DNA of 64,000 bases from contig OX638337.1 of assembly GCA_951812855.1 (NCBI GenBank), positions 960,108 through 1,024,107 on the forward strand, written 5' to 3'. Positions within the stretch are counted from its first letter, which is position 1, and the number at the start of each line of letters is the position of its first letter. Position numbers and translations under genes: made by a program. Shown one piece after another: positions 5,135-41,343 of this stretch. Under the pieces are notes generated by a model. That model was not told the origin of the DNA, made no database searches, and was given only the letters and a program-made list of their open reading frames with translations. Source of the DNA: an uncultured Lentisphaeria bacterium (GTDB lineage Bacteria > Verrucomicrobiota > Lentisphaeria > JABSQK01 > JAJFLO01).

Positions 5135-7021
5135 ATGAATACCTCTGTTACACCCTACTTAAACAGTTTATGGGCCACCCTGATCGTTGAAGAGTCTGTA
5201 CGATTGGGTAATTGTAACGTGTGTATCTCACCCGGATCAAGAATCACTCCGCTGGCAGCAGCTGCAGCCTTACATCCTAAAATAGAGAGTACCGTTCATT
5301 ATGATGAGCGTGGCACAGCGTTTTTTGCCTTAGGACAGGCAAAAGGATCAGGAAAAGCCAGTATCCTGTTATCAACATCAGGCTCGGCCGTTGCTAATTT
5401 TATGCCTGCGGTTGTTGAGGCAGCTATGGATAGAGTTCCATTGATAATTCTTACCGCTGATCGCCCGCCGGAACTAAGAGACACCGGAGCAAACCAAACG
5501 ATTGATCAAGTTAAATTTTTCTCTAATTACGCCGTATGGCAATTCGACCTCCCCTGTCCGACACTCGATATCCCGCCGGATACACTGTTGAGTATCATTG
5601 ATCATGCCGTGTTTAAGAGCGAAAACATCAGAAAAGGTGTAGTGCATTTAAACTGTCTGTTTCGGGAACCATTTCTACCTGACAACCAGGACCTTACAGA
5701 AAATAAAAAATCATTCTCGTTTGACCAATTTTTGCATAAATCAAATTCTATGTTGAATAAGGAATTAGAAAACACGTCTTTTTCGGAAATCAACTCTCCT
5801 ATAGGAAAAGACTTGCTGTTACGATATACAGCATCAATCAATTCGTGGATAAAAACTGCTGCACCGAAAACAGATTATCGGAGGGCGGCAGGCTACTCAC
5901 CAAAATCCACGACCCAATCCGAGTCAATACTTGCATCTATCAGCAAATCAAAAAAAGGCTTGATAATATTGGGCAATATTTCATCAAAGATTAAATCTGA
6001 TATTTTAATGGAATTTTTGAAAAAACTAAACTGGCCGGTATTTGCAGATATCAATTCTGGAATTCGTCCAGGGTTTGATTCTGACATTGTAATACACTAT
6101 TATGATCAGCTGCTATACGATTCGTGCCAATTAGATTCATTTTCACCGGATTCAATTATTCAAATCGGACATCAAATCGTATCTAAAAGATTATTGAATT
6201 TTCTTCGTAATTGTCACCCCGAAGAATATGTACTCCTGACAGATTCTAATGACCGCATTGACCCTAACCACCGTATAACGCACCAAATCGTTACTGACAT
6301 TTCCGGATATTTGGATTTGATTTCAGCTGAAATAAAGCGTTCCCCAAAATCACCCGTTCTTAAATCAATGAGTAAAAAATCAGTCCTGATTGATCAATTT
6401 TTGATTGACGAATTTGATTTAAACAAACCGTTGACAGAGCCGGGAATCGCCAGACATCTATCAGAGTGTATACCCGCAGATACAGGTATGTTTATTGGAT
6501 CAAGCATGCCTATTCGCTATATGGATATGTTTGCTGCACGGGATGGCAATACCCCTGTTATAACATCTAATCGTGGAGCCAGCGGCATAGATGGTGCAAT
6601 CGCAACCGCTGCCGGATTTGCTAAGAATATTAATAAGCCCATGACTGTTTTAATCGGTGATTTAACCTTACTTCACGACATGAACTCTCTGCCCTTGATA
6701 AAATCACAATTACATCCATTTGTGATTATAGTTCTCAACAATGATGGTGGCGGTATATTTTCCCTGCTTCCTATTTCCCGGCATTTCAAAAACAAAAACC
6801 TGGAGCAGCATTTCTCAAGTACTCATGGACTGAAATTTGACAAAACAGCATCCATGTTTGGGTTTAATTATAGCTCGCCGCCATCACTGAAATCATTTAT
6901 TTCTGAATATTCTCTGGCAATAGAAAACACAACTCCGACTATTATTGAAATATCCAGTAACCGATCTAAAAATGCTGAATGTTTGGAGAACATAAAAATT
7001 CAGATTTTGAAGATTACTTGA
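5135..7021 (+). CDS. menD: 2-succinyl-5-enolpyruvyl-6-hydroxy-3-cyclohexene-1-carboxylate synthase (TPP-dependent)
   Basis: 628-aa ORF with TPP-enzyme N- and C-terminal domains (…ILLSTSGSAVANFMPAVVEAAMDRVPLIILTADRPPELR…, …NRGASGIDGAIATAAGFA…); 30 bp downstream of menF. Confidence 0.85.
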   Translation: MNTSVTPYLNSLWATLIVEESVRLGNCNVCISPGSRITPLAAAAALHPKIESTVHYDERGTAFFALGQAKGSGKASILLSTSGSAVANFMPAVVEAAMDRVPLIILTADRPPELRDTGANQTIDQVKFFSNYAVWQFDLPCPTLDIPPDTLLSIIDHAVFKSENIRKGVVHLNCLFREPFLPDNQDLTENKKSFSFDQFLHKSNSMLNKELENTSFSEINSPIGKDLLLRYTASINSWIKTAAPKTDYRRAAGYSPKSTTQSESILASISKSKKGLIILGNISSKIKSDILMEFLKKLNWPVFADINSGIRPGFDSDIVIHYYDQLLYDSCQLDSFSPDSIIQIGHQIVSKRLLNFLRNCHPEEYVLLTDSNDRIDPNHRITHQIVTDISGYLDLISAEIKRSPKSPVLKSMSKKSVLIDQFLIDEFDLNKPLTEPGIARHLSECIPADTGMFIGSSMPIRYMDMFAARDGNTPVITSNRGASGIDGAIATAAGFAKNINKPMTVLIGDLTLLHDMNSLPLIKSQLHPFVIIVLNNDGGGIFSLLPISRHFKNKNLEQHFSSTHGLKFDKTASMFGFNYSSPPSLKSFISEYSLAIENTTPTIIEISSNRSKNAECLENIKIQILKIT

Positions 7022-7543
7022 CCTTTCTTCTTAAAACCAGCCCGTTTTGAAAGAGAGTCCTCACTGTTAAATTATAGTAATAAAGGAGAACATATAGTGA
7101 AACGGAAATCCGCCCTTTGGTAATATGATCTTTTTGATTCGTTCTCCTTTAATAACATTCACGTAAAAAAACCGCGGTAATTCTGAGATTCATTCAAGCG
7201 TACAGCAGCAAATGGATTGCTTATTTTGGCACTTTTAAAAAAGTTCCTGAGCAAAGAGATGACCTGCTGATTTACCCGTGCCTGTACTGAAATAAACGAA
7301 AGATCGCCTTTGGACAGTTTTTTTTCAGCGAATCCAGAACAATAATTGTAAAAGCATCATTAACGGTTTCAGTTTCATGACAGGCTCATTACATTTGATA
7401 AATAAAAAGAGGCGTAACTTGAAGATTTTTTGAGTTATTATATTTTCATGATGAGTTTAACCGGCTTCCTGTTCTTCAAGGAAGGCAAAGGGAAAATAAG
7501 GCTTCTATGCAAAATGAAGAGAAGTCCAAACGGAAATGACTAA

Positions 7544-10500
7544 ATGCATGACGATTCCACAATAAACGATGGGATAATTCCCCTTACCAATCCTGATCAG
7601 GCAGAGCTTGATAAACATGCGATTATCGAAGCATCGGCGGGAACGGGGAAGACCTATACGATCGAACAGCTGGTTGTTCGACTGCTCATTGGAAACCCTG
7701 ATGTAAATCCTCCGGTTTTACCTATTCCTATTGACCGGATTCTGGTTGTCACATTTACCGAAAAAGCGACCGGCGAAATGAAAGACCGGATACGTAATAC
7801 TATCGAAGCAAAACTGAACAACGCAGCACGTTCTGATACCGAATGGTTCTATCTGCATGACGCACTGGAAAATTTTGATAATGCCCAGATATCAACGATA
7901 CATGGGTTCTGTCACCGAACATTGCGGGAACATGCCTTTGAAAATGGTCGCCAGTTTGAATATGATGTCGTTGATGATCGGGATATTTACCATACACTGT
8001 TACTCCGGCAAATGCGGGAAGATTGGCCAAAACACTATGGCCGCAATCTATGCACATACCTTCTATTGGCAGATTTTCCGCATCGAGTCCAAAATGAGAG
8101 TCAGTGGATAGACACAACGATTAAACTTGCACAAAACTTCAGACCCAATGCCGGAGATCAACTCTATCCTGAACCTGATGCAACCGTTTCACCAATGAAA
8201 ACTGTGTCGGAACTGAAACAATACCTGTCTGAATTAGTAATGGTGATTGGAGGATTTCCAATTAACTCTGTTACCGATCATCCATTTTATGGTGCGTATT
8301 CCAGATTGAACTTTAATGCCGGCAGCAAAAACCTCCGCCTTAAGAACGTTATTACACCATTATTAGAACTGTTAGACCATTTCAGGGAAAAGAAGAATGA
8401 CATTCTGGATTCCGGTACAGTCGCAGCAATGATCAGATTAATCCGGGATAATAAAAAAACATCAGCGTTTGCTGAGTCCGGTTTTGCCTGCCTTATGCCG
8501 AAAAAATGGAATAAGGACAAGAACAACCTGGATACAGAATGCCCGCATTTACAATCTATAATCAACCCTCTTGAACAGATCCGGGAATTGACAACATCCT
8601 TTGCCCCTCAATTCAGGAGTCAGGTTGTTAAACAACTGCAAACCGATGTCCGCCTGTATAAGGAACAGAAAGGTTTACTGACTTACAACGATATGATCTC
8701 CATGGTTGCAGCCGCGTTATCCGGAAACCATGGCACTGAAACCCCGCCTCCATTATTATCTGCGTTACGTGATCGCTACAAGATTGCATTAATCGATGAA
8801 TTTCAAGATACGGATATCTTACAATGGTCAATTCTGAAAACCGTTTTCGTGGATAAACATGATGACAGCCCACACCGTTTAATTGTTGTTGGAGATCCCA
8901 AACAGGCAATATATGGTTTTCGCGGTGCCGATTTGAATGCCTATTATTTAGCCCGAAATCAACTTGGTAAACTCGGAAAAACGAAAACCGGATGTTACTC
9001 ACTGGATACCAATTGGCGTTCAATTCCACAGTTAATAGATGCATTCAACGCTCTATTCAAACACGATAACTGGTTTCAACGTAATGACATCCGACATCAA
9101 CCGGCCAATACTCCGACACCCGGATCAGGACGGAATCGATTATATCGTGACAACACAGGTTCTTCAGTATTAATAACGCATAGCATTAACAGTGATAAAT
9201 CAGCGAAGGCGGCTCAGGCAGAGTGGTTTAAATTTATTGCAGCAGAAATTGATCGTTTACTGAATTCATCAACTGAAATGATGATGTTTGGTGATAAAAC
9301 CTCACCGCCTCGACCGCTTCGTGCAGATGATATTTGTATCCTTTGCCAAAATAAAACAGAAGCCGGACGAATAGAGAAAGAATTAAATAACACTCACATC
9401 CCCTATTCATTTTACAAAAAACCGGGGCTATATGAATCCGATGAAGCCTTGCAGCTGCTTTACTTATTAGAGGCAATTGCGTCGCCAAATGATACGGCTG
9501 CGTTTAAGAAACTGCTGATGACATGCTTTTTTGCAATTCCGGTATTAGATGTCAAAAATTATGAAAATCTGCCTTCGGATCATTGTATTAAACGGCTTTT
9601 CCTGAAGTGGGTCAGACATGCAGCAAATCGACAGTGGGCGATTATGTTTCATTCAATCAGAAACGAAACCCGCATTCTGCTAAACACAGGAAACGACCCC
9701 GATCATGAACGGCGATTAACAAATATTGAACAGATTATCCAAGAACTCCATAATCGTGCATTGACCGAAAATATGGATATTATTGACCTTGCCAATCTTC
9801 TTGGCAACCTTTATTATAATCATATCTCAATCTCTGAGGAAGACAATTTACATCGTCGAGACACAGAACATCCCGGGGTACAAATGACCACCATCCATAA
9901 GAGTAAAGGACTTGAGTTTCCTGTTGTTTTCATTGCCGGGGGAATGACAGCACCTCCGAATACAAATCAACCCTATTACAAGATTCATAATGGGGAACAT
10001 GTCATTTATGACCTGACATCCAAATCAAAATCACAATGGGAAAATGAACAGCATGAAGAACTGCAGCGGTTATACTATGTTGCATTAACCCGGGCAATAT
10101 ATAAGCTTTATATTCCTCATTATCGAAACGAAAAACAGCTGAATGCGTCAGGAGCAGTCGCCAAAATACTATATCCCGCCATTAATGCTGCTGCAGGCGA
10201 ACTTCCCGCCGCTCCTGTTATAACTGATCGAATTGATATATCAAACTCTGAGTGGAACGAGTCGAGGATGAAGGTAATACAACTCGATCCGGCAATAGAG
10301 TTACCGCGTAACGATTTCAATCTCAGAGACCGAAACAGGTCACAGAGTATCGATTCATATTCCGGGTTAAAAAACAAAATGCTGCCACATGCTCCAGCCA
10401 AATTCCAGAATATCTCAAATCAATTCGGATATGACCAGGCGGAAGAACCTGCAGCCGATGAAAGCAGTCAAACGACGCAAACCCGGACAATGAACATTGA

Positions 10501-11218
10501 AGCTGCCGATCCAATTCAAAAAACAGGTCTGCCGCCCGGTCGACTCACCGGGAATCTATTGCATAATGTATTCGAATCATTAGACTTTCAACTTGCCGGA
10601 TCCACGGCAGGTCCAAAGGAACTCTTACAAACCGGCACAGCTGAAGTCATTAAAAAATCGATGAATCACTATCAACTGCCGGCAGAACATGATGATCAAC
10701 TCAAAACAATCTATCACCATGAAATTTCGAAAATTATCTGGACAACATTAAATGTCGAACTTCCAGGCGGAATCAAACTTCGGGATATTTCAGAATGTGA
10801 CCGCAAACACGAACTGGAGTTTTTTTTTCCGTATCCTCAGTTAAGTAATACTGACATTCCCAATATCAATCGATGTGACGGCTTTGTAAAAGGTTATATC
10901 GATTTGATATTCCGCTGCCGGAATAAGTATTATATTCTTGATTGGAAATCGGATAGTCTCGATGATTATTCACCGGATCAACTGGAGCATCATATGTGCA
11001 GTAATTACTATGATCTGCAATATAAACTCTATACGATCGCAACAGATCGCTGGCTGCAGCAATATCATCAGACAAATCAATTAGCGGGCGTATTTTATCT
11101 ATTCCTCCGTGGCTTGAAAACAGGGACACATAGCGGGATTTTCCCGGTAATATTTAAAGATCAGGTTCCCCCGACTCAGGAATATGAAAACGAACTTGAT
11201 AAATTGATACAAACGTAA
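7544..11218 (+). CDS. recB: RecB-family helicase-nuclease (exodeoxyribonuclease V beta-like)
   Basis: 1224-aa ORF; N-terminal UvrD/Rep-type Walker A (IIEASAGTGKTYTIEQL), helicase motifs (…VVGDPKQAIYGFRGAD…), C-terminal PD-(D/E)xK nuclease motif (GYIDLIFRCRNKYYILDWKSD). Confidence 0.8.
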   Translation: MHDDSTINDGIIPLTNPDQAELDKHAIIEASAGTGKTYTIEQLVVRLLIGNPDVNPPVLPIPIDRILVVTFTEKATGEMKDRIRNTIEAKLNNAARSDTEWFYLHDALENFDNAQISTIHGFCHRTLREHAFENGRQFEYDVVDDRDIYHTLLLRQMREDWPKHYGRNLCTYLLLADFPHRVQNESQWIDTTIKLAQNFRPNAGDQLYPEPDATVSPMKTVSELKQYLSELVMVIGGFPINSVTDHPFYGAYSRLNFNAGSKNLRLKNVITPLLELLDHFREKKNDILDSGTVAAMIRLIRDNKKTSAFAESGFACLMPKKWNKDKNNLDTECPHLQSIINPLEQIRELTTSFAPQFRSQVVKQLQTDVRLYKEQKGLLTYNDMISMVAAALSGNHGTETPPPLLSALRDRYKIALIDEFQDTDILQWSILKTVFVDKHDDSPHRLIVVGDPKQAIYGFRGADLNAYYLARNQLGKLGKTKTGCYSLDTNWRSIPQLIDAFNALFKHDNWFQRNDIRHQPANTPTPGSGRNRLYRDNTGSSVLITHSINSDKSAKAAQAEWFKFIAAEIDRLLNSSTEMMMFGDKTSPPRPLRADDICILCQNKTEAGRIEKELNNTHIPYSFYKKPGLYESDEALQLLYLLEAIASPNDTAAFKKLLMTCFFAIPVLDVKNYENLPSDHCIKRLFLKWVRHAANRQWAIMFHSIRNETRILLNTGNDPDHERRLTNIEQIIQELHNRALTENMDIIDLANLLGNLYYNHISISEEDNLHRRDTEHPGVQMTTIHKSKGLEFPVVFIAGGMTAPPNTNQPYYKIHNGEHVIYDLTSKSKSQWENEQHEELQRLYYVALTRAIYKLYIPHYRNEKQLNASGAVAKILYPAINAAAGELPAAPVITDRIDISNSEWNESRMKVIQLDPAIELPRNDFNLRDRNRSQSIDSYSGLKNKMLPHAPAKFQNISNQFGYDQAEEPAADESSQTTQTRTMNIEAADPIQKTGLPPGRLTGNLLHNVFESLDFQLAGSTAGPKELLQTGTAEVIKKSMNHYQLPAEHDDQLKTIYHHEISKIIWTTLNVELPGGIKLRDISECDRKHELEFFFPYPQLSNTDIPNINRCDGFVKGYIDLIFRCRNKYYILDWKSDSLDDYSPDQLEHHMCSNYYDLQYKLYTIATDRWLQQYHQTNQLAGVFYLFLRGLKTGTHSGIFPVIFKDQVPPTQEYENELDKLIQT

Positions 11219-11258
11219 TTAAAATTAACTGACCCAACATAGTCTCAACGCGAATTAA

Positions 11259-13385
11259 ATGATGAGTTTACCACTAACGATCGAAACCCTGAAACATCAC
11301 AATGTTATATCTCCGGGGAACATTGATATTGAAACGCTTTATACCAATGCACTGGACCATTTAAATCTAACCGGTGCAGACTATCTGACGATTCGGGATT
11401 TGCTGCAATTCATCAATCAACCGGAAATAGACGTTCATGCACTTTTGCTCTGCATGTTTGCATCGCTTAATGATGGAAGTGTCTGTATTCATATTAACCC
11501 GTCAAATCTTAACAGACACTTATGTCGGTTTCTAAAGAATGAAACAGTCATTGACCGACTGGTTCAGGATATAATTTCCTGCCTGAAGAATAAAAAAACA
11601 GCCCCTGTCATTGGTCAGTCAGTTAAGGAATTTAAACCCTTAATTCAGGCAAATGACAGCCTGTTATACTTTCAAAAATACTACTCTGCAGAATATAGAT
11701 TAGGCCAGTTACTCTCATCAATTATAGATAGCGACAGCACAATTACCCCGATTACAGATGGTAATCTAAATGAGATACTGATTGATAGTTTTGAGACTCA
11801 ACCAATTGGATCAGGCCACGGGCAAATTCGTTATAATGATGACCAGATTTTGGCTCTGATTGCTGTACTTTTAAAACGATTTGTCATCATTTCCGGAGGT
11901 CCGGGAACAGGGAAAACGTCTCTGATTATCGCCATTGTCCGGATGTTTATCCGAACCGGTATATTCGCTGACCGTATCAAGCTTGCTGCACCAACCGGGC
12001 GTGCCGCCCAACGATTGACAGAATCTATTCATGCTTTAAATTTCAGTCAGGGCAGCAAAAATGAGATTGATGACAGTTTGAAAAGTATGGACGCTACGAC
12101 AATCCATCATCTTCTTGGTTATAAAAAATCACGTAATTCATTCACCTGCAATGACCATAACCTCCTGCCTGCAGATGTGGTTATTGTCGATGAAGTGTCC
12201 ATGGTTGACATCGTCTTAATGACAAAACTTTTACAGGCAATCCCAAAGGAGTGTCACATTATTTTTCTTGGTGATCGCAATCAATTACCCTCAGTTGAAG
12301 TCGGCAGTGTTCTGGCAAATCTTATCCCCGTATCGTTACCGGGATATTCTATTGAATTCCGGGAAACCGTAAAATCAATCAGACCCGAAATTAATCTGCC
12401 GGCACTATCGGCACAAGACAATAATCAATTGTGTGACAAGGTCGTATTTTTGTCGAAAAATTACCGTTCTGAACCAAATATAATACAGATTACCGATACA
12501 ATAAACTCACTTTCAAATGAAAACCCGGGCATAGACACAGCATCCAGGGCGGCCGAAATAATCCATGACCTTCCACAATTGAATATAAAGCAAATGACCC
12601 ATTCCTCACAATTCCCTAAAACTGGATGTTGGCAGTTTATACCCGGCACAACTTCCGATAAATTGATATGGATAGAAATCATACAAACCTGGGGAAAATC
12701 TCAATACCTGATGCGCAGAGACAACCATGGAAACACCTATAAAGACTGTATTCAAAAAGTTCAGGGAAGAGAGATTCAGTCTGAGGTTCACAGTGATGAT
12801 AAAAACGAAACATTTGATGCGATATTTAAATTTATCAGTCAGGCACGAATACTGACACTCATCCATGCCGGATTATTGGGTACCCAGGGTATTAATGAAA
12901 TTTTAATCAATCAGCTTCACCCCGAATTCGATACCCCGGGAAGCAATGCAATATTTCACGGATCACCTATCCTGATTACCCGCAACGATAAAATAAGTGG
13001 TCTGTTTAATGGCGATATAGGCGTTATACTAACTGATGCAGAGCGTGGATTTAACGGCGTGTTCCAACGGTCAGGAAACTACATTTCAATTCCTGTCAAT
13101 GAACTCCCGCCATACGAATCATCTTTCGCCATGACTGTTCATAAAAGTCAAGGATCTGAATATGATGACGTTCTTCTTGTACTCCCCGATAATCCCAATC
13201 ACCGATTATTGACGCGTGAAATCATTTACACCGGCCTCACCCGTGCAAAAAATCTGGCTGTTATATATGGTTCAAAAGAAACACTGCAAACCGCTATAAC
13301 AATACAGATACATCGGGAATCAGGATTGGATATTTGGAATTTTCATGAAATACAGGGGGAATCTTTACACAGACAAAATGTATAG
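11259..13385 (+). CDS. recD: RecD-family SF1 5'-3' helicase (exodeoxyribonuclease V alpha-like)
   Basis: 708-aa ORF; Walker A ISGGPGTGKTS, Walker B …VIVDEVSMVD…, C-terminal …TVHKSQGSEYDDVLLVLP…; 40 bp downstream of recB. Confidence 0.8.
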   Translation: MMSLPLTIETLKHHNVISPGNIDIETLYTNALDHLNLTGADYLTIRDLLQFINQPEIDVHALLLCMFASLNDGSVCIHINPSNLNRHLCRFLKNETVIDRLVQDIISCLKNKKTAPVIGQSVKEFKPLIQANDSLLYFQKYYSAEYRLGQLLSSIIDSDSTITPITDGNLNEILIDSFETQPIGSGHGQIRYNDDQILALIAVLLKRFVIISGGPGTGKTSLIIAIVRMFIRTGIFADRIKLAAPTGRAAQRLTESIHALNFSQGSKNEIDDSLKSMDATTIHHLLGYKKSRNSFTCNDHNLLPADVVIVDEVSMVDIVLMTKLLQAIPKECHIIFLGDRNQLPSVEVGSVLANLIPVSLPGYSIEFRETVKSIRPEINLPALSAQDNNQLCDKVVFLSKNYRSEPNIIQITDTINSLSNENPGIDTASRAAEIIHDLPQLNIKQMTHSSQFPKTGCWQFIPGTTSDKLIWIEIIQTWGKSQYLMRRDNHGNTYKDCIQKVQGREIQSEVHSDDKNETFDAIFKFISQARILTLIHAGLLGTQGINEILINQLHPEFDTPGSNAIFHGSPILITRNDKISGLFNGDIGVILTDAERGFNGVFQRSGNYISIPVNELPPYESSFAMTVHKSQGSEYDDVLLVLPDNPNHRLLTREIIYTGLTRAKNLAVIYGSKETLQTAITIQIHRESGLDIWNFHEIQGESLHRQNV

Positions 13386-13470
13386 GTACATCAGCACTGA
13401 TTTAAAATTTACGGCCATGGTAACTAATAATAATCAATCTTATATTGCGTTATAAATAAATAAAAATATT

Positions 13471-14046
13471 TTGAAAGAGATACCAATTCTTATGGAATCA
13501 GACGTATATAAAACACCGGGAACAGACTTACAGAATAACAATCAGCTCAATCCTGATTACTATGTGGTCTCACCGAAAAAGTTTGTTGTCCTCTTCACCG
13601 TTACTGTTGGCGTGTATTCGGTCTATTGGTTTTATAGAAACTGGCTGCACTACAAAAAGCGCAGCGGCGAAAAAATATGGCCGGTGATGCGTGCGATTTT
13701 TTCGATATTTTATGTCCATTCATTGTTTGAAATCATTGATACCAGACTTAAAAAAATGAATAGTTATTTTATATGGTCACACCGTTCCGCGGCAACGTCT
13801 TACGTTCTGTTCACGATTATTCAGAGCGTTTGCGATCATTTATCTTCAAAAAACATTGGATATCCCATTACAGATATAGTGAGTATCGCCATACTCCCTG
13901 TAATTGGTTATTCGCTCTATATTGGACAAAAAGCAATCAATGAAGCTTGCAAGGACCCGAATGGAGAATCAAATTCCAGGTACACCGCAGCCAATATTTT
14001 CTGGATCGTCATGGGCTGCATATTATGGCTGTTTGTAATTAATTGA
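13471..14046 (+). CDS. Hypothetical multi-pass membrane protein (DUF4234-like signature VGVYSVYWFYRNW)
   Basis: 191-aa ORF with 3-4 hydrophobic segments; no catalytic motif recognised; assignment to DUF4234 is from memory of the motif only. Confidence 0.45.
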   Translation: MKEIPILMESDVYKTPGTDLQNNNQLNPDYYVVSPKKFVVLFTVTVGVYSVYWFYRNWLHYKKRSGEKIWPVMRAIFSIFYVHSLFEIIDTRLKKMNSYFIWSHRSAATSYVLFTIIQSVCDHLSSKNIGYPITDIVSIAILPVIGYSLYIGQKAINEACKDPNGESNSRYTAANIFWIVMGCILWLFVIN

Positions 14047-14212
14047 TATTATTTTGGGCATTCCCGACCCGGAATAAATCCTGGAATTAAATAACGCAGA
14101 AATTTGGCAATGTATCATTCCCGATATCGTGAATAACTGTGATTTACTTTAGTTTTAGAATCAGCATATCCTTTCTACTGACACATCGAATAGAAACAGC
14201 CAATATGCAATT

Positions 14213-14701
14213 ATGAGTACAACACATAATTTTCATTTTTCAGATTCACGTGATATTGGCACTGTTGACAATGATTCAATCGACCTGGCTGTTACCTCAC
14301 CACCCGACCCTGTGATGGAAATGTGGGATGACCTTTTTGTTACTCTTAATCCAGATATTAGCGATGTACTTTCAGATTTAAACGGCCGGTTAGCCTTTAG
14401 TAAAATGCATCATGAATTAGATAAAGTCTGGAGAGAATTGGATCGGGTCGTGAAACCAGGCGGATTTGTATGCATAAATATCGGTGACGCAACCTGAACA
14501 ATCGGTAATAATTTCAGCCTGTATTCCAACCATTCCAGCATCCTTATGTCAATGACATCACTCTCATTTTCGTTACTGCCGTTAATATTATGGAGAAAAT
14601 CGACAAATTCACCAACGAAATTTATGGGCTCGGGGCTGCTCCCGCCAGGGGCCTGTATAACACTTGAACATGGATACATATTAATCTTCAGAAAAAATTA
14701 A
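14213..14701 (+). pseudogene. DNA (N4/N6-adenine/cytosine) methyltransferase remnant with in-frame TGA and missing C-terminal SAM-binding region
   Basis: Frame continues through TGA at 14495-14497: …SIDLAVTSPPDP…VVKPGGFVCINIGDAT(TGA)TIGNNFSLYSNHSS…FMGSGLLPPGACITLEHGYILIFRKN(TAA); resembles N-terminal half of PF01555-type MTases (DPPY-like motif degraded to SPPD); no downstream FxGSG motif found. Confidence 0.5.
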
Positions 14702-15364
14702 AATATAATAGCCGGCACCATTGTTTTCCTGTTATGACACGACAGGGGCAGGAGATACTCATTAAGTACATTGAAACGATTCAGATCAGTGATAACGGCA
14801 GAATTAATGTGGACTACACACCATTTGAATTAAATAATAAGTATGCGGAAACAGAAGAATCAGTTAAACACAAATCACAAATTTTAGAGAACCGGCAATT
14901 ATCATTATTCCAGATCTATTCTCGGAGAATCTCAATAATTATTAATAAGCAGGTGTCGTCATATGTTCTGGGTCGTCGTTGCAGTATTTGGATGTATCTT
15001 TTTTATCGTAATTAATGCGTTCGTGTTTAATCCGCCGGAATCATTGCTCAAGTCTATACTTGAATGGAAAGAAAAATCAGTAGATGATGATCCTGGAACT
15101 GAAGACAGTAAAGAATAAAGTAAACAATACGTGATCTAAGAATCAAAACTTAAAACGGTAACACAGATTGATATGCCTCATGAACTCATTTTCAATCAAT
15201 CACATAAAAACCGAAATCAATGGTCGATATTTTATGAAACGATCTCTTCGGTGGACTTAAAAATTGATAATCGTAACAGGACAGTGTAAAATTAAATCTG
15301 ATAACTATTGAAAATCCGCTTTTTCAGAACAGGCTCCCGTTAAATCCTAATAATATAAAAAATT

Positions 15365-15868
15365 ATGTTTTTTAACTTATTATTACTATTTATTGTTGTA
15401 CCCATCATTGAATTATTGATTTTATTCAGAATTGGAGGACTGCTGGGTGCAATCAATACATTTACGGTGATAATTATTACCGGTGTTATTGGTGCATATC
15501 TGGCTAAACGACAGGGATTAATAATTCTTAAAAAAATTCAGACATCCATTGGAGAGGGCAAAATTCCTGCTGCCGAAGTTGTTGATGGTCTAATCATTCT
15601 CGTTGCCGGTGCAGTATTGTTAACGCCTGGATTTTTAACTGATATCACCGGCTTTTTACTCTTACTTCCTTTTGGGCGAAATCTGGTAACACTCTGGTTA
15701 ATAAAAAAGTTTACAACTATGATAAAATCGGGTAAAATTTCAGGGTCTGATTCCGGACACTTCGCGTTTAACATGACATCACATTCAGAGAAGGAAACGA
15801 TTCAGACTCACAAGAGCGATGTCATTGATGTAGAAAGCAGGCAGATTAATGACAACCTGATTGAATAA
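15365..15868 (+). CDS. fxsA: FxsA family cytoplasmic membrane protein
   Basis: 167-aa ORF; N-terminus …VPIIELLILFRIGGLLGAINTFTVIIITGVIGAYLAKRQG… matches FxsA family signature. Confidence 0.7.
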   Translation: MFFNLLLLFIVVPIIELLILFRIGGLLGAINTFTVIIITGVIGAYLAKRQGLIILKKIQTSIGEGKIPAAEVVDGLIILVAGAVLLTPGFLTDITGFLLLLPFGRNLVTLWLIKKFTTMIKSGKISGSDSGHFAFNMTSHSEKETIQTHKSDVIDVESRQINDNLIE

Positions 15869-15968
15869 TCCAAATCAGGTTTCAGGGATTCATTAACAAA
15901 GCTGCCGGATATGGTTTTCTTGCCCGGTTAGAATAATTCCAATAACGTCTTATACATGATCGTTGTGA

Positions 15969-16868
15969 TTGGTATTAAAGCACCTATTAATTTTAGTTTA
16001 TATGGCAAAGATACTTATAGCAGGATGTGGTAAAATCGGGATTAAATTGGGTTTAAAATTAGCCGAAGAAAACCATGACGTTTTTGGAGCAAGACGAAAT
16101 ATATCCGAAATTCCTGCTCCAATAATTCCTTTAACCGTTGATTTTTCAATACCGGATACACTGCCGGCCATTCCCGGGGCAATTGAATTTGTATATATTA
16201 TTTTAACCCCGGAAAAGTTTGATGATGACAGCTATAAACGAAGCTATGTTGAAGCGACGCAGAATATTTTGAAATATTTCGAAAAAAAGAAAGAGAAACC
16301 ACTTCACATCTTTTTTATATCAAGTACCAGTGTTTATGGACAGAAAAACGGCGAATGGGTTGATGAAAATTCAGAGACTGTTCCATTAGGTTTTTCAGGA
16401 ACGAGGATGCTCGAGGCAGAACAACTCATCACTCAGTCATCGATTGCGGGTGCCTCCTGTATTCGGTTTGGTGGTATTTATAGTAGTAAAAGAACAAGAC
16501 AAATCGATCGAATACAAAAAGGCATTTCAAAAAATTATCATGATTTAATAAATTATAAAAATTTAATTAATGAGGAAGATGCAGTAGGAATATTGCACCA
16601 TTTATTGGCAGAACCGAATAAGGAGACTCATTATCTGGCAGTTGATAATGAACCCGTTCAGGAATGCGATTTGTTAGAGTGGCTTCTGACAGAATTAAAG
16701 CTGTCTACAGCTCACGAATGCTCTGACCAATCTTTGTCCAGAAAGAGGAATTTAACTAATAAACGCTGTAATAATCAGAGAATTAGAAGATCAGGTTATA
16801 AATTTTCTTTCCCGACATACAAAGAAGGTTACAGGTCCATTATTGAAAAATTAGCTGCTTCAGCCTAG
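15969..16868 (+). CDS. NAD(P)-binding Rossmann-fold protein (SDR/epimerase-dehydratase family)
   Basis: 299-aa ORF; glycine-rich dinucleotide-binding motif MAKILIAGCGKIG near N-terminus (likely true start around 16002); …ISSTSVYG… typical of NAD-dependent epimerase family. Confidence 0.65.
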   Translation: MVLKHLLILVYMAKILIAGCGKIGIKLGLKLAEENHDVFGARRNISEIPAPIIPLTVDFSIPDTLPAIPGAIEFVYIILTPEKFDDDSYKRSYVEATQNILKYFEKKKEKPLHIFFISSTSVYGQKNGEWVDENSETVPLGFSGTRMLEAEQLITQSSIAGASCIRFGGIYSSKRTRQIDRIQKGISKNYHDLINYKNLINEEDAVGILHHLLAEPNKETHYLAVDNEPVQECDLLEWLLTELKLSTAHECSDQSLSRKRNLTNKRCNNQRIRRSGYKFSFPTYKEGYRSIIEKLAASA

Positions 16869-17006: not shown

Positions 17007-17105
17007 TTATATTTGGACTACTTTTGCTTTTGTTGATTTCTTAAAAAAATTCGCTTCCTGTTGATTTTATAATACGTTACAATTATTCAGGAATGTATTG
17101 GAATT

Positions 17106-17135
17106 TTAATTGCTGTAGTTTTAATTGCTGTAGTT
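17106..17135. repeat. Perfect tandem duplication of 15-mer TTAATTGCTGTAGTT
   Basis: Seen directly in sequence (two adjacent identical copies). Confidence 0.7.
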
Positions 17136-17500
17136 AGAAAAAAGCGTGCATGTCGATTGCAGCGTCTGACAGTGAGGGATATCTGGTGGTACGCATAGTC
17201 AGAACACAGGTCGGAGAGGTTTCTGAGTAACTTCCATCACCGCTGAAGGCATGGTCTGAAGAACAATAGACTGTCCTGGCGTCTCTGGGCAATGCTTCTA
17301 TTAATGAATGGCTCAATACTGTCAACATTAATTTTATGTGTATGAATGTACTTGCTCCCATTTACAAGACTAAAATTAAATCATTGGTTAGGTCATGGTA
17401 TACAAACAATAATCAGCAATTATTAAAATATAGAAAACGGGTAATAAATTCTATAACCCAAGACTGCTGACGGTGGTTAAAAATGCAGGATATTATTTTA

Positions 17501-24121: not shown

Positions 24122-24487
24122 AATACTGGTATATATAAACGAATCCCTGCCCTGGCCAACGCTGCCGGGTTCACCTTCAGCACAATGCCACGGCTTAAAT
24201 ACCTAAAAAAGAAATGCACAGTGAGGTCGCCCAGGCATTACCATAGACGATGACGTACCACTAATATGGCAGAAAACATCAATAAACAATTAAAGGAACG
24301 AACACGCATCGCATCACTTTTCCCAAACGAAGCATCACTGCTCAGATTGGCAAGTGCCATTTTGATCAAAATCAGCGACCGGCGGACGCTGGAAAACGTA
24401 CCTGAAAATGGATCATCAATGACCTGCGATTATCAAACTGCAGAAAAAAATTTGCATTACCGCCATTTTTTAATAATTGTGTACTAA
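24122..24487 (+). mobile_element. IS256 (Mutator)-family transposase 3' remnant with in-frame TGA
   Basis: Frame translates …SPRHYHRR(TGA)RTTNMAENINKQLKERTRIASLFPNEASLLRLASAILIKISD…, matching the conserved C-terminal block of IS256-family transposases (…TTNxIExxNxxLRxxxKxxxxFPNExSxxRLxxAxL…); N-terminal/catalytic part not found; 5' boundary approximate. Confidence 0.5.
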
Positions 24488-31151: not shown

Positions 31152-32715
31152 TTAGCTTCGATTAAGCACAATTGCAGTTCGGGCTGGAAGATATACGGTG
31201 AAGAAATGCTTTTGATTTTTACCGTTATTTTTACATTCTCGGGTATGGTAACGCTGATTTTCATCCAGTCTGCCCTGGCCGTTAAAGGTTTTTGCATCAC
31301 TGTCTAATAGAAGTTTGTAAGTCCCGGGATCAGTATAAACCGGTAAATGATTAACGGGGATTAAAGTTAAAGATAAAAATAAGTTGAGCTCGTTGGAAAC
31401 AAATTAATTTATCCAGGATGTGGTTGCAGATTAAATCTCCCCTGTCATCAGGATCTAGAAGATTAAACGTGTCGGCTATTTTTATCATTTCCTTGTCAAA
31501 TTCTGCTAAATGATAATAAATCAGATTGGGATCATCACGCAGGCTCCACTGGCGTCTTGCATATTGGAACGACCAATCATTTCCTTCTCTCGGGAAATCA
31601 ATCCACTCAGGATGACCAAACTCATTTCCCATAAAATTCAAATACCCTTCACCACCGATGGCCAACGTAATCAGACGGATCATTTTATGTAAGGCGACAC
31701 CTCTTTCAACAGAGATATTGTTATGGTCAAGATGCATATTGTGGTACATATCTTCGGCAATGGTCAGGGCATCGGGTTTGAGTTTGTGAATCAGTTTATT
31801 TGCCAATGTCAGGCAGGTCAGGGCATCGTTATCCACCTGATCATTGAAATAATCATCATAAGTTGTAAATGTTTTATCAAGACCATGGTCGGTGTACAGC
31901 ATGCTGGTGACGCCATCAAAACGAAATCCATCTAAATGAAATTCATCCCGCCAATATCGACAGTTTGATAGCAGAAAATGTATCACTTCACCTTTTTGAC
32001 AGTCAAAACATCGTGAGTCCCAGGCGTCATAATAGCCGCGGCTGCCGGTATGAAAATAAAGATGATCAGTACCGTCAAAAAAGCTTAATTATTCTACTTC
32101 ATTGCGAACGACATGGGAATGAACCAGATCCATGATGACAGCAACGCCTTGACCGTGTGCGGCATCGATAAGTGCTTTTAATTCATCCGGCGTCCCGAAT
32201 CTGGAAGATGCTGTAGAAAAATTAGACACATGATAACCAAATGATCCGTAGTAAGGATGTTCCTGTATTGCCATCAATTGGATGGTATTGTAGCCGCAAT
32301 CAACGATTCTCGGGAGAATATTATTTTTGAATTCGGTGTATGATCCGACACGGGTATTCTCCAATGCCATACCAATATGTGTCTCGTAAATGATTGGTGG
32401 TTTCGTTGATCGTTTAAATCAGGTATCTGCCGGATCAATTTTAATCCTTATAGTTTCGCCTTCCGACCATATTGGGTTTTCTGAATTTTCTGGCAGGGAA
32501 AACATTTTCACCTGGAAATAGCCAACCTCCAACATTGGCAATGAAATTTTGTAATAATTTTTACGAACTGGTTTCATCGGGAAATCAAACCAGTCGTCAT
32601 TCTTTTTGGCTTCTCCGAATTCCACCTGATTAATAATATCCTGCCGGTTGTTCCTGCCGTGGCTCAGTGTACTTCTGATCCGGGCGGTCTCTTGACAGGG
32701 TTGATTTAATGTCAA
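31152..32715 (-). pseudogene. glgB: Eukaryote-type (GH13) 1,4-alpha-glucan branching enzyme gene, decayed: four in-frame stops, one frameshift, internal deletion, truncated N-terminus
   Basis: Three track ORFs (32419..32715, 32089..32370, 31351..31986) lie in the same frame, separated by in-frame TGA (32419-21) and TAA (32089-91); conserved GBE motifs present (…IYETHIGMA…, …[23 protein letters not shown]…, …LDGFRFDGVTSMLY…, …HKMIRLIT…GGEGYLNFMGNEFGHPEW…) but ~95 aa including the catalytic ESHDQ region absent between TIAED and MYHNM; C-terminal domain (…VYTDPGTYKLLLDSDAKTFNGQGRLDE…FFTVYLPARTAIVL) continues in another frame after TAA 31351-53/TGA 31330-32. Confidence 0.65.
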
Positions 32716-32818
32716 TAAAAACAGAATAATATCACCACTACAGGATATTACTTCTGATCCGGGCTTTGGTGTTGTGTCAGCATTTTCTTTAGTATCGTTA
32801 ATACGAAATGTTATAAAA

Positions 32819-41025: not shown

Positions 41026-41343
41026 TCAGTTATGCCTGAACGTGAACATCGTATTATTTAGCACCTCTTTAATCGCAGATGCCGGTTTAGATAAATCAAT
41101 TGGTTTCATGACGCAGTCATATACACCCGCTTCCTTCGCTTTTTCAGGGCTGGTACTGCCACTGAAACCCGAAGCAAGTATAACGGGGATATTCGGATTA
41201 ATTTCCAGAATATGTTTGACCAGATCAGTTCCAGTCATTCCGGGCATTGTCTGGTCGGTAAAGATTAGATCAAATCGTTCTGAATTCGATTTAATTTTCC
41301 GAGAAGCAGAGATTATATTTTTATGTATTTGAGGGAATTTCCA
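41026..41343 (-). pseudogene. Response-regulator receiver domain remnant (C-terminal two-thirds only)
   Basis: Minus-strand frame reads (stop)…KIKSNSERFDLIFTDQTMPGMTGTDLVKHILEINPNIPVILASGF…AKEAGVYDCVMKPIDL…; contains phospho-acceptor Asp region and K of receiver fold but lacks the N-terminal acidic pocket and any start codon upstream. Confidence 0.5.

Follow-up and report, generated by a model that had tools for sequence, protein, structure and literature searches.

A decayed beta-class DNA methyltransferase gene of the M.MthZI/M.MjaI family, probably solitary before its inactivation

Results

The methyltransferase remnant and its parts

The region 14213-14910 on the plus strand of the window (the whole 64-kb stretch of DNA analysed here) is, with high probability, a non-functional remnant of a beta-class DNA methyltransferase (MTase) gene with an SPPY motif IV, belonging to the M.MthZI/M.MjaI family. 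The region is homologous to this family, carries several disabling lesions, lies at the same position as an intact gene of a relative, and is the same in two strains. No active enzyme can be made from it because the cofactor-binding lobe, the catalytic tyrosine, and a continuous reading frame are all missing. It is an ordinary pseudogene of an already known family, and its parts are as follows.

14213..14698 (+): N-terminal part of the MTase pseudogene, 162 codons in frame 1, motif IV through the EHxYILIFRK block
14297..14308 (+): motif IV, SPPD (native SPPY), codons 29-32; codon 32 changed from TAC to GAC
14495..14497 (+): in-frame TGA, codon 95, replacing the conserved Arg of GDATR; CGG in the orthologue
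14683..14701 (+): deletion junction inside the A-run TTCAGAAAAAATTAAAATAT; the alignment of the N-terminal part runs to 14695, and that of the C-terminal part begins at 14683 in frame 3
14699..14701 (+): frame-1 TAA, codon 163, a product of the frame change
14683..14910 (+): C-terminal tail of the MTase in frame 3, orthologue residues 299-374; holds most of the 93-codon ORF 14734-15015
14911..15015 (+): non-homologous read-through beyond the lost original stop; the orthologue ends ...QQLSLF-stop, the window continues ...RQLSLFQIYSRR...
14963..15118 (+): 51-codon gene for a small membrane protein, a neighbour outside the pseudogene; 54% identity (E 3e-17) to positions 11853-12002 of the relative's locus L087

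Frame 1 from the ATG at 14213 was translated as MSTTHNF...DLAVTSPPDPVMEMWD...CINIGDAT-stop-TIGNNF...EHGYILIFRKN-stop. An earlier, sequence-only reading of this DNA had described the N-terminal half of an N4/N6-type MTase that reads through a TGA at 14495-97 and ends at a TAA at 14699-701, and both codons were found there as codons 95 and 163. The proposed homology was also borne out by the profile search: PF01555 (N6_N4_Mtase) matched the read-through translation with 36.9 bits, above its gathering score of 26.7, and the match comprised profile positions 1-107 of 221, that is, the N-terminal half only. The homology of the remnant to PF01555 is far beyond chance, because a protein database search with the read-through remnant gave about 270 homologues, the best showing 60-64% identity with E values down to 1e-59. 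A C-terminal catalytic region with FxGxG, which the same reading had failed to recognise, was likewise not found in the window by either tblastn or the family HMM described below. A search of NCBIfam with the remnant and the 93-codon ORF gave no relevant family. When the region was scanned for promoters and terminators, promoter-like sites were fewer than in shuffled sequence and no terminators were detected; the 94-codon N-terminal ORF might still be transcribed and translated.

An intact orthologue downstream of recD in a relative

The gene upstream of the remnant in the window is recD. In the relative GCA_012263305.1 (contig WLWD01004618.1, locus L087), RecD is about 60% identical to that of the window, and an intact PF01555 gene of 374 codons (8996-10120) lies directly downstream of recD. 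This gene showed 73% identity to the N-terminal part in the window (E 3e-76), and it retains SPPY, GDATR, FFWEERN, AYPFEL, and FLGTGTT. Like the window copy, it stands between recD on its upstream side and the 51-codon gene on its downstream side and has no endonuclease beside it; unlike the window copy, it is intact, and an insertion sequence carrying a DDE transposase (DDE_Tnp_1) gene lies between it and the small gene (11853-12002). Because the order of recD, MTase, and small membrane-protein gene is common to the two loci, this order is ancestral, and the window copy is the decayed orthologue.

The 51-codon ORF 14963-15118 is probably a real gene since it is conserved in L087 at the identity given above. 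Its product is small and hydrophobic, and the read-through at the end of the pseudogene runs into the gene. A 191-codon ORF (13471-14046) with a hydrophobic product lies between recD and the pseudogene; it could be placed in no family of Pfam or NCBIfam, and L087 lacks a counterpart. A recB-like gene (1224 codons, UvrD helicase and PDDEXK) adjoins recD in 7544-13385 with no recC before them, and MenD (5135-7021) followed by a 522-bp gap lies upstream of the recB-like gene; in the more distant relative L088, recC, recB, and recD are consecutive. In L087, the recD call consists of two ORFs of 235 and 482 codons (6247-8365), which may reflect a frameshift, and two DDE_Tnp_1 transposase genes were observed downstream of the MTase gene (10557-16157).

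An internal deletion and a tail in another frame

Full-length genes of the family taken from genome loci have 344-397 codons (median 365). Among the 80 listed genome loci, 76 have complete, uninterrupted ORFs, and these 76 were used to build the family HMM. The window has no uninterrupted ORF of that length, as it is broken by the TGA at codon 95 and by a frame change at about 14690, and about 424 nt are missing. A clean C-terminal truncation was suggested by the first tblastn search, in which the queries were protein-search hits (120 listed), all of at most 284 residues and devoid of the C-terminal tail of the family; nothing was seen past 14698 because the query proteins lacked this tail. 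The truncation was overturned once full-length genes from genome loci were used as queries. The 377-codon gene of Desulfocicer vacuolatum (L008) aligned to 14210-14695 of the window in one frame, and its last 76 residues aligned to 14689-14916 in the other frame (E 4e-6). The family HMM gave a frame-1 match over nodes 1-163 (260.9 bits) and a frame-3 match over nodes 301-349 (22.1 bits, E 3.5e-9), and nodes 164-300 had no counterpart in the searched region 13386-15365. Furthermore, residues 299-374 of the syntenic orthologue aligned by tblastn to 14683-14910 with 53% identity (E 4e-23). Because these three results are concordant, the ORF 14734-15015 is the MTase's own C-terminal tail, overrunning the lost stop. 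The sequence-only reading had treated this ORF as an adjacent one of no identifiable family; it indeed has no Pfam match, as it has none in NCBIfam, but it is not independent of the MTase gene.

The coding sequence of the orthologue has 1122 nucleotides and 14213-14910 of the window has 698, so that about 424 nt are missing. As 424 is a multiple of three plus one, the loss changes the frame. The missing segment corresponds approximately to residues 162-298 and comprises the entire catalytic lobe of the C-terminal side, with the FFWEERN block, the AYPFEL block, and the AdoMet-binding motif I (FxGTG). In the orthologue, both breakpoints lie in A-runs, TTCAGAAAAGG and CGATAAAAAAGAA (the second also given as CGATAAAAAAGAATTTGAAATAT), and the same two sites in ER2bin7 (L007) read AGAAAAGGGGA and CAAAAAAAAGGTGA. 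Since A-runs are present at the junction and at both breakpoints, a deletion by slippage or microhomology is plausible; we infer this from endpoints that are approximate, as the orthologue has diverged.

Point lesions and the timing of the decay

Tyr32 of motif IV is invariant in the 76 intact homologues, and it is Asp in the window (Y32D). The degradation of this motif to SPPD had been noticed previously with DPPY as the presumed starting point; the degradation stands, but the native motif is SPPY, so that only the change of Tyr to Asp counts. Two other invariant columns are changed (Y148C and E154G), as are near-invariant columns (M34V, I35M, R109S, G118S, and M142L). The window copy thus violates 3 of 25 invariant columns, compared with a mean of 0.12 for the intact genes, 69 of which (of 76) violate none. 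The Arg95 of the GDATR motif, which is conserved in at least 95% of the intact homologues, is replaced by TGA. The window copy carries neither a motif IV of the form (S/D)PP(Y/F) nor a motif I of the form FxGxG.

The dN values to two outgroups were 0.279 and 0.319 for the window copy versus 0.218 and 0.266 for the L087 gene, and in this relative-rate comparison the non-synonymous change on the window branch was about twice that on the orthologue branch. Only dN and the relative-rate comparison were used, and no dN/dS, as the synonymous sites were saturated (pS 0.67-0.75). The window copy therefore combines disabling lesions relative to an intact orthologue with relaxed constraint. Between the window and L087, the dN of the MTase (0.17) was below that of recD (0.29); because of this, the MTase gene must have been constrained through most of the divergence of the two lineages and probably died relatively recently, the recent timing being our reading of these distances.

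Family and probable specificity

The N-terminal part in the window showed 53% identity to M.MthZI of the plasmid pFZ1 (E 8e-63), and the orthologue in L087 was 52.8% identical to the pFZ1 MTase over residues 1-343 (92% of its length, E 1e-113). On pFZ1 (NC_001337.1), the MTase gene is convergent with a gene annotated as "MjaI family restriction endonuclease", and the two constitute the MthZI system. According to Ouellette et al. 2018 (PMC5867850), M.MthZI has been characterised experimentally as an m4C CTAG methyltransferase, and its beta subtype also includes the homologues M.MjaI, M.BfaI, and HVO_0794 of Haloferax. The same authors class HVO_0794 as an orphan and report that CTAG methyltransferases of the orphan kind occur widely among Halobacteria. 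Our direct sequence comparison covered M.MthZI, and the likeness to HVO_0794, M.MjaI, and M.BfaI is drawn from that publication.

The family shares with M.MthZI the PF01555 architecture, the N-terminal SPPY motif IV, the FxGTG motif I towards the C-terminus, and a size of some 355-375 residues. In contrast to M.MthZI, M.MjaI, M.BfaI, and HVO_0794, the window copy is dead (motif I deleted, the Tyr lost, a nonsense codon, and a frame shift), and it is a member by descent only, namely a PF01555 pseudogene of the M.MthZI/M.MjaI beta class. It also differs from M.MthZI of Methanothermobacter in its host, which is a bacterium of the PVC type (Planctomycetes-Verrucomicrobia-Chlamydiae group) and not an archaeon, and in having no partner endonuclease. 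Judging from the identity of about 53%, the family, and the linkage to MjaI-type nucleases at a minority of the loci, the ancestor is presumed to have been specific for CTAG with m4C as the product. The closest non-orthologous relatives of the MTase among the matches listed are from Desulfobacterales (64-67% identity); the distribution of the family is therefore patchy across the phylogeny, as one would expect of methyltransferase genes. Among solved structures, the one closest to the full-length family members was TTHA0409 of Thermus thermophilus (PDB 2zie, E 7.8e-31, residues 6-271), a putative beta-class modification methylase that is much more distant, lacks the C-terminal tail of about 100 residues, and serves as a fold reference only.

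Discussion

The findings are best explained by the following course of decay. The ancestor was a gene of about 374 codons between recD and the small membrane-protein gene, probably a solitary (orphan) MTase. A single loss of about 424 nt, bounded by A-rich stretches, took out residues 162-298 and shifted the frame; the Arg95 codon became TGA, and the catalytic Tyr of motif IV was replaced by Asp, with further invariant residues changed (Y148C and E154G). The inactivation that the sequence-only reading had proposed is thereby confirmed against an intact syntenic orthologue, by the deletion, the nonsense codon at Arg95, and the loss of Tyr32.

Two explanations would deny that the gene is dead. 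In one, sequencing or assembly introduced the TGA or the frame break by mistake, and the true gene is whole. Single-base errors can create stops, and several metagenome homologues appeared frameshifted near the T-run of the FFWEERN block in the first search, in which the listed hits were all of at most 284 residues. However, the lesions are of three independent kinds, among them a 424-nt deletion, and substitutions at invariant residues are found in addition. At least five alternate contigs of the long-read metagenome assembly ENA ERZ18545485 are identical to the window, and 11 contigs carry a sequence coding for the 94-residue ORF product. The primary contig of this assembly, the circular 1.94-Mb ptg000035c, differs from the window at 22 of 8794 positions (0.25%) and by one indel of about 490 bp, and the two strains do not differ in the pseudogene or in the region downstream of it, the nearest difference being at 14208. 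Because the lesions are identical in two strains, and in one of them on several haplotigs, they are not sequencing errors; the same base at 14495 in both strains and several haplotigs also disposes of the suggestion that an error at this position explains the stop, and we regard an artefact as practically excluded. In the other explanation, a product still functions, through read-through of the TGA, as a protein of 94 or 162 residues with a new role, or as a split MTase with a cofactor-binding half supplied by a gene elsewhere. The start codon and the N-terminal frame are kept, and the remnant is without polymorphism between the two strains; at a divergence of 0.25%, though, zero SNPs in 700 nt is not significant (about 1.7 expected). 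TGA is a normal stop here: it ends 9 of the 35 long ORFs in the window and occurs inside none of them, with ORFs of up to 1224 codons, which also ruled out an alternative genetic code with TGA as a sense codon. Substitutions have removed the catalytic Tyr and other invariant residues, the window contains no fragment bearing motif I, and the C-terminal tail directly follows the N-terminal part in a different frame, which fits a simple deletion and not a split gene. A functional product is accordingly very improbable, even if somewhat less so than an artefact.

Given that the gene is a pseudogene, the remaining question is what kind of gene decayed. The sequence-only reading had raised the possibility of a relic of a restriction-modification system, which would here be a type II system of the MthZI/MjaI type whose endonuclease was lost first and fully erased while the MTase was still decaying. 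True pairs do exist in the family, on pFZ1, in Desulfocicer vacuolatum (L008), where an RE_MjaI gene (PF09568, 2.9e-40) overlaps the start of the MTase gene, and at five or six other loci. CTAG is also strongly depleted in the window, with 5 sites observed versus 42 expected from trinucleotide frequencies (O/E 0.12). Depletion of CTAG is, however, widespread in bacteria. Most of the genomes carrying the family show it with or without an endonuclease (pooled O/E 0.30 and 0.46, respectively), and we rejected it as a sign of past restriction because it is general among these genomes and hence not specific. The same reading had recognised no endonuclease in the flanks, and this holds for the whole window: a search in all six frames by tblastn and with a five-sequence HMM of the MjaI family yielded nothing better than E 0.3 for an MjaI-type endonuclease remnant. 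No MjaI-type endonuclease gene lies within 8 kb of the intact syntenic orthologue in L087 either. The search of the host genome covered these 64 kb, and a second intact MTase gene or a distant endonuclease gene may lie outside them. Among the 80 listed genome homologues, 6-7 have an MjaI-type neighbour and 73-74 do not, and clustering of the neighbours within 2.5 kb of these loci revealed no other recurrent partner. The relic is therefore unsupported, and we consider it improbable. Within the pseudogene reading, a decayed orphan MTase is the probable alternative to the last relic of a restriction-modification pair. The position is conserved without an endonuclease partner, as seen in a single relative (L087), and the solitary state would predate the inactivation because it is common to the orthologous locus in GCA_012263305.1. 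An older restriction-modification origin of this orphan ancestor is possible.

Among the other 4-base palindromes, GCGC was also depleted in the window (14 versus 54 expected, O/E 0.26), and the remaining ones tested had O/E values of 0.72-1.24.

By analogy with the orphans of Halobacteria, the solitary, recD-linked MTase of the CTAG type might have been a vertically inherited epigenetic regulator of this PVC-type lineage, and its decay a natural knockout during genome reduction; we offer this as a speculation that is rather unlikely to be right. If it were true, the recent decay in a 1.94-Mb genome in which CTAG is almost absent would mark the loss of a regulatory layer. CTAG in the host is predicted to be unmethylated, unless another enzyme acts on it.

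The importance of these findings lies mostly in annotation. They add the anatomy of a single gene with an internal deletion, its family and probable specificity, an intact syntenic orthologue, and a revision from a restriction-modification relic to a probable orphan. The locus should be annotated as one MTase pseudogene (14213-14910) and one real small gene (14963-15118) instead of two or three hypothetical ORFs. More generally, a gene that seems "truncated" may hold an internal deletion, with its tail concealed in another frame.

Several homologues on long contigs (P0002, P0004, P0010, P0046, and P0057) end early, with the FFWEERNxWFSD block out of frame (AYPFEL in P0046). The locus L084 has a frameshift at about 8521-8549, where a T-run codes for the FFWEERN block. 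These cases could represent homopolymer sequencing errors or a recurrent slippage site.

The best named relatives of SecDF (182-2737) in the window are from Verrucomicrobiota, Kiritimatiellota, and Lentisphaeria, at about 50% identity, which gives a rough placement of the host. ORFs of at least 150 codons cover only about 75% of the window, and an Rfam scan of the window detected no RNA family, rRNA and tRNA included. Other apparent gene remnants were seen. On the minus strand, the region 31351-32817 contains a fragment of a GH13 alpha-amylase-family gene at 32092-32418 (PF00128 positions 29-92 of 446), flanked by further ORF pieces separated by stops, and has the appearance of another broken gene. 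Positions 24254-24484 on the plus strand encode the C-terminal end of a Mutator-family transposase (PF00872 positions 334-373 of 379), and positions 41029-41343 on the minus strand a response-regulator receiver domain without its first 38 or so profile positions; each suggests a gene remnant. Decay in the window is thus not confined to the MTase gene but affects several genes, and the pseudogene and the other fragments suggest a small, modestly decaying genome.

The indel of about 490 bp mentioned above is a presence/absence polymorphism at 17007-17496: the window and the alternate contigs have the segment, and ptg000035c (L001) of the second strain lacks it. The segment contains a 75-codon ORF without a Pfam match, and it lies between a 299-codon ORF (15969-16868, no family assigned) and a Poly_export gene. 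A direct repeat of some 20 nt, AAAATAG(C/T)GCAAAACACTGT, flanks the segment.
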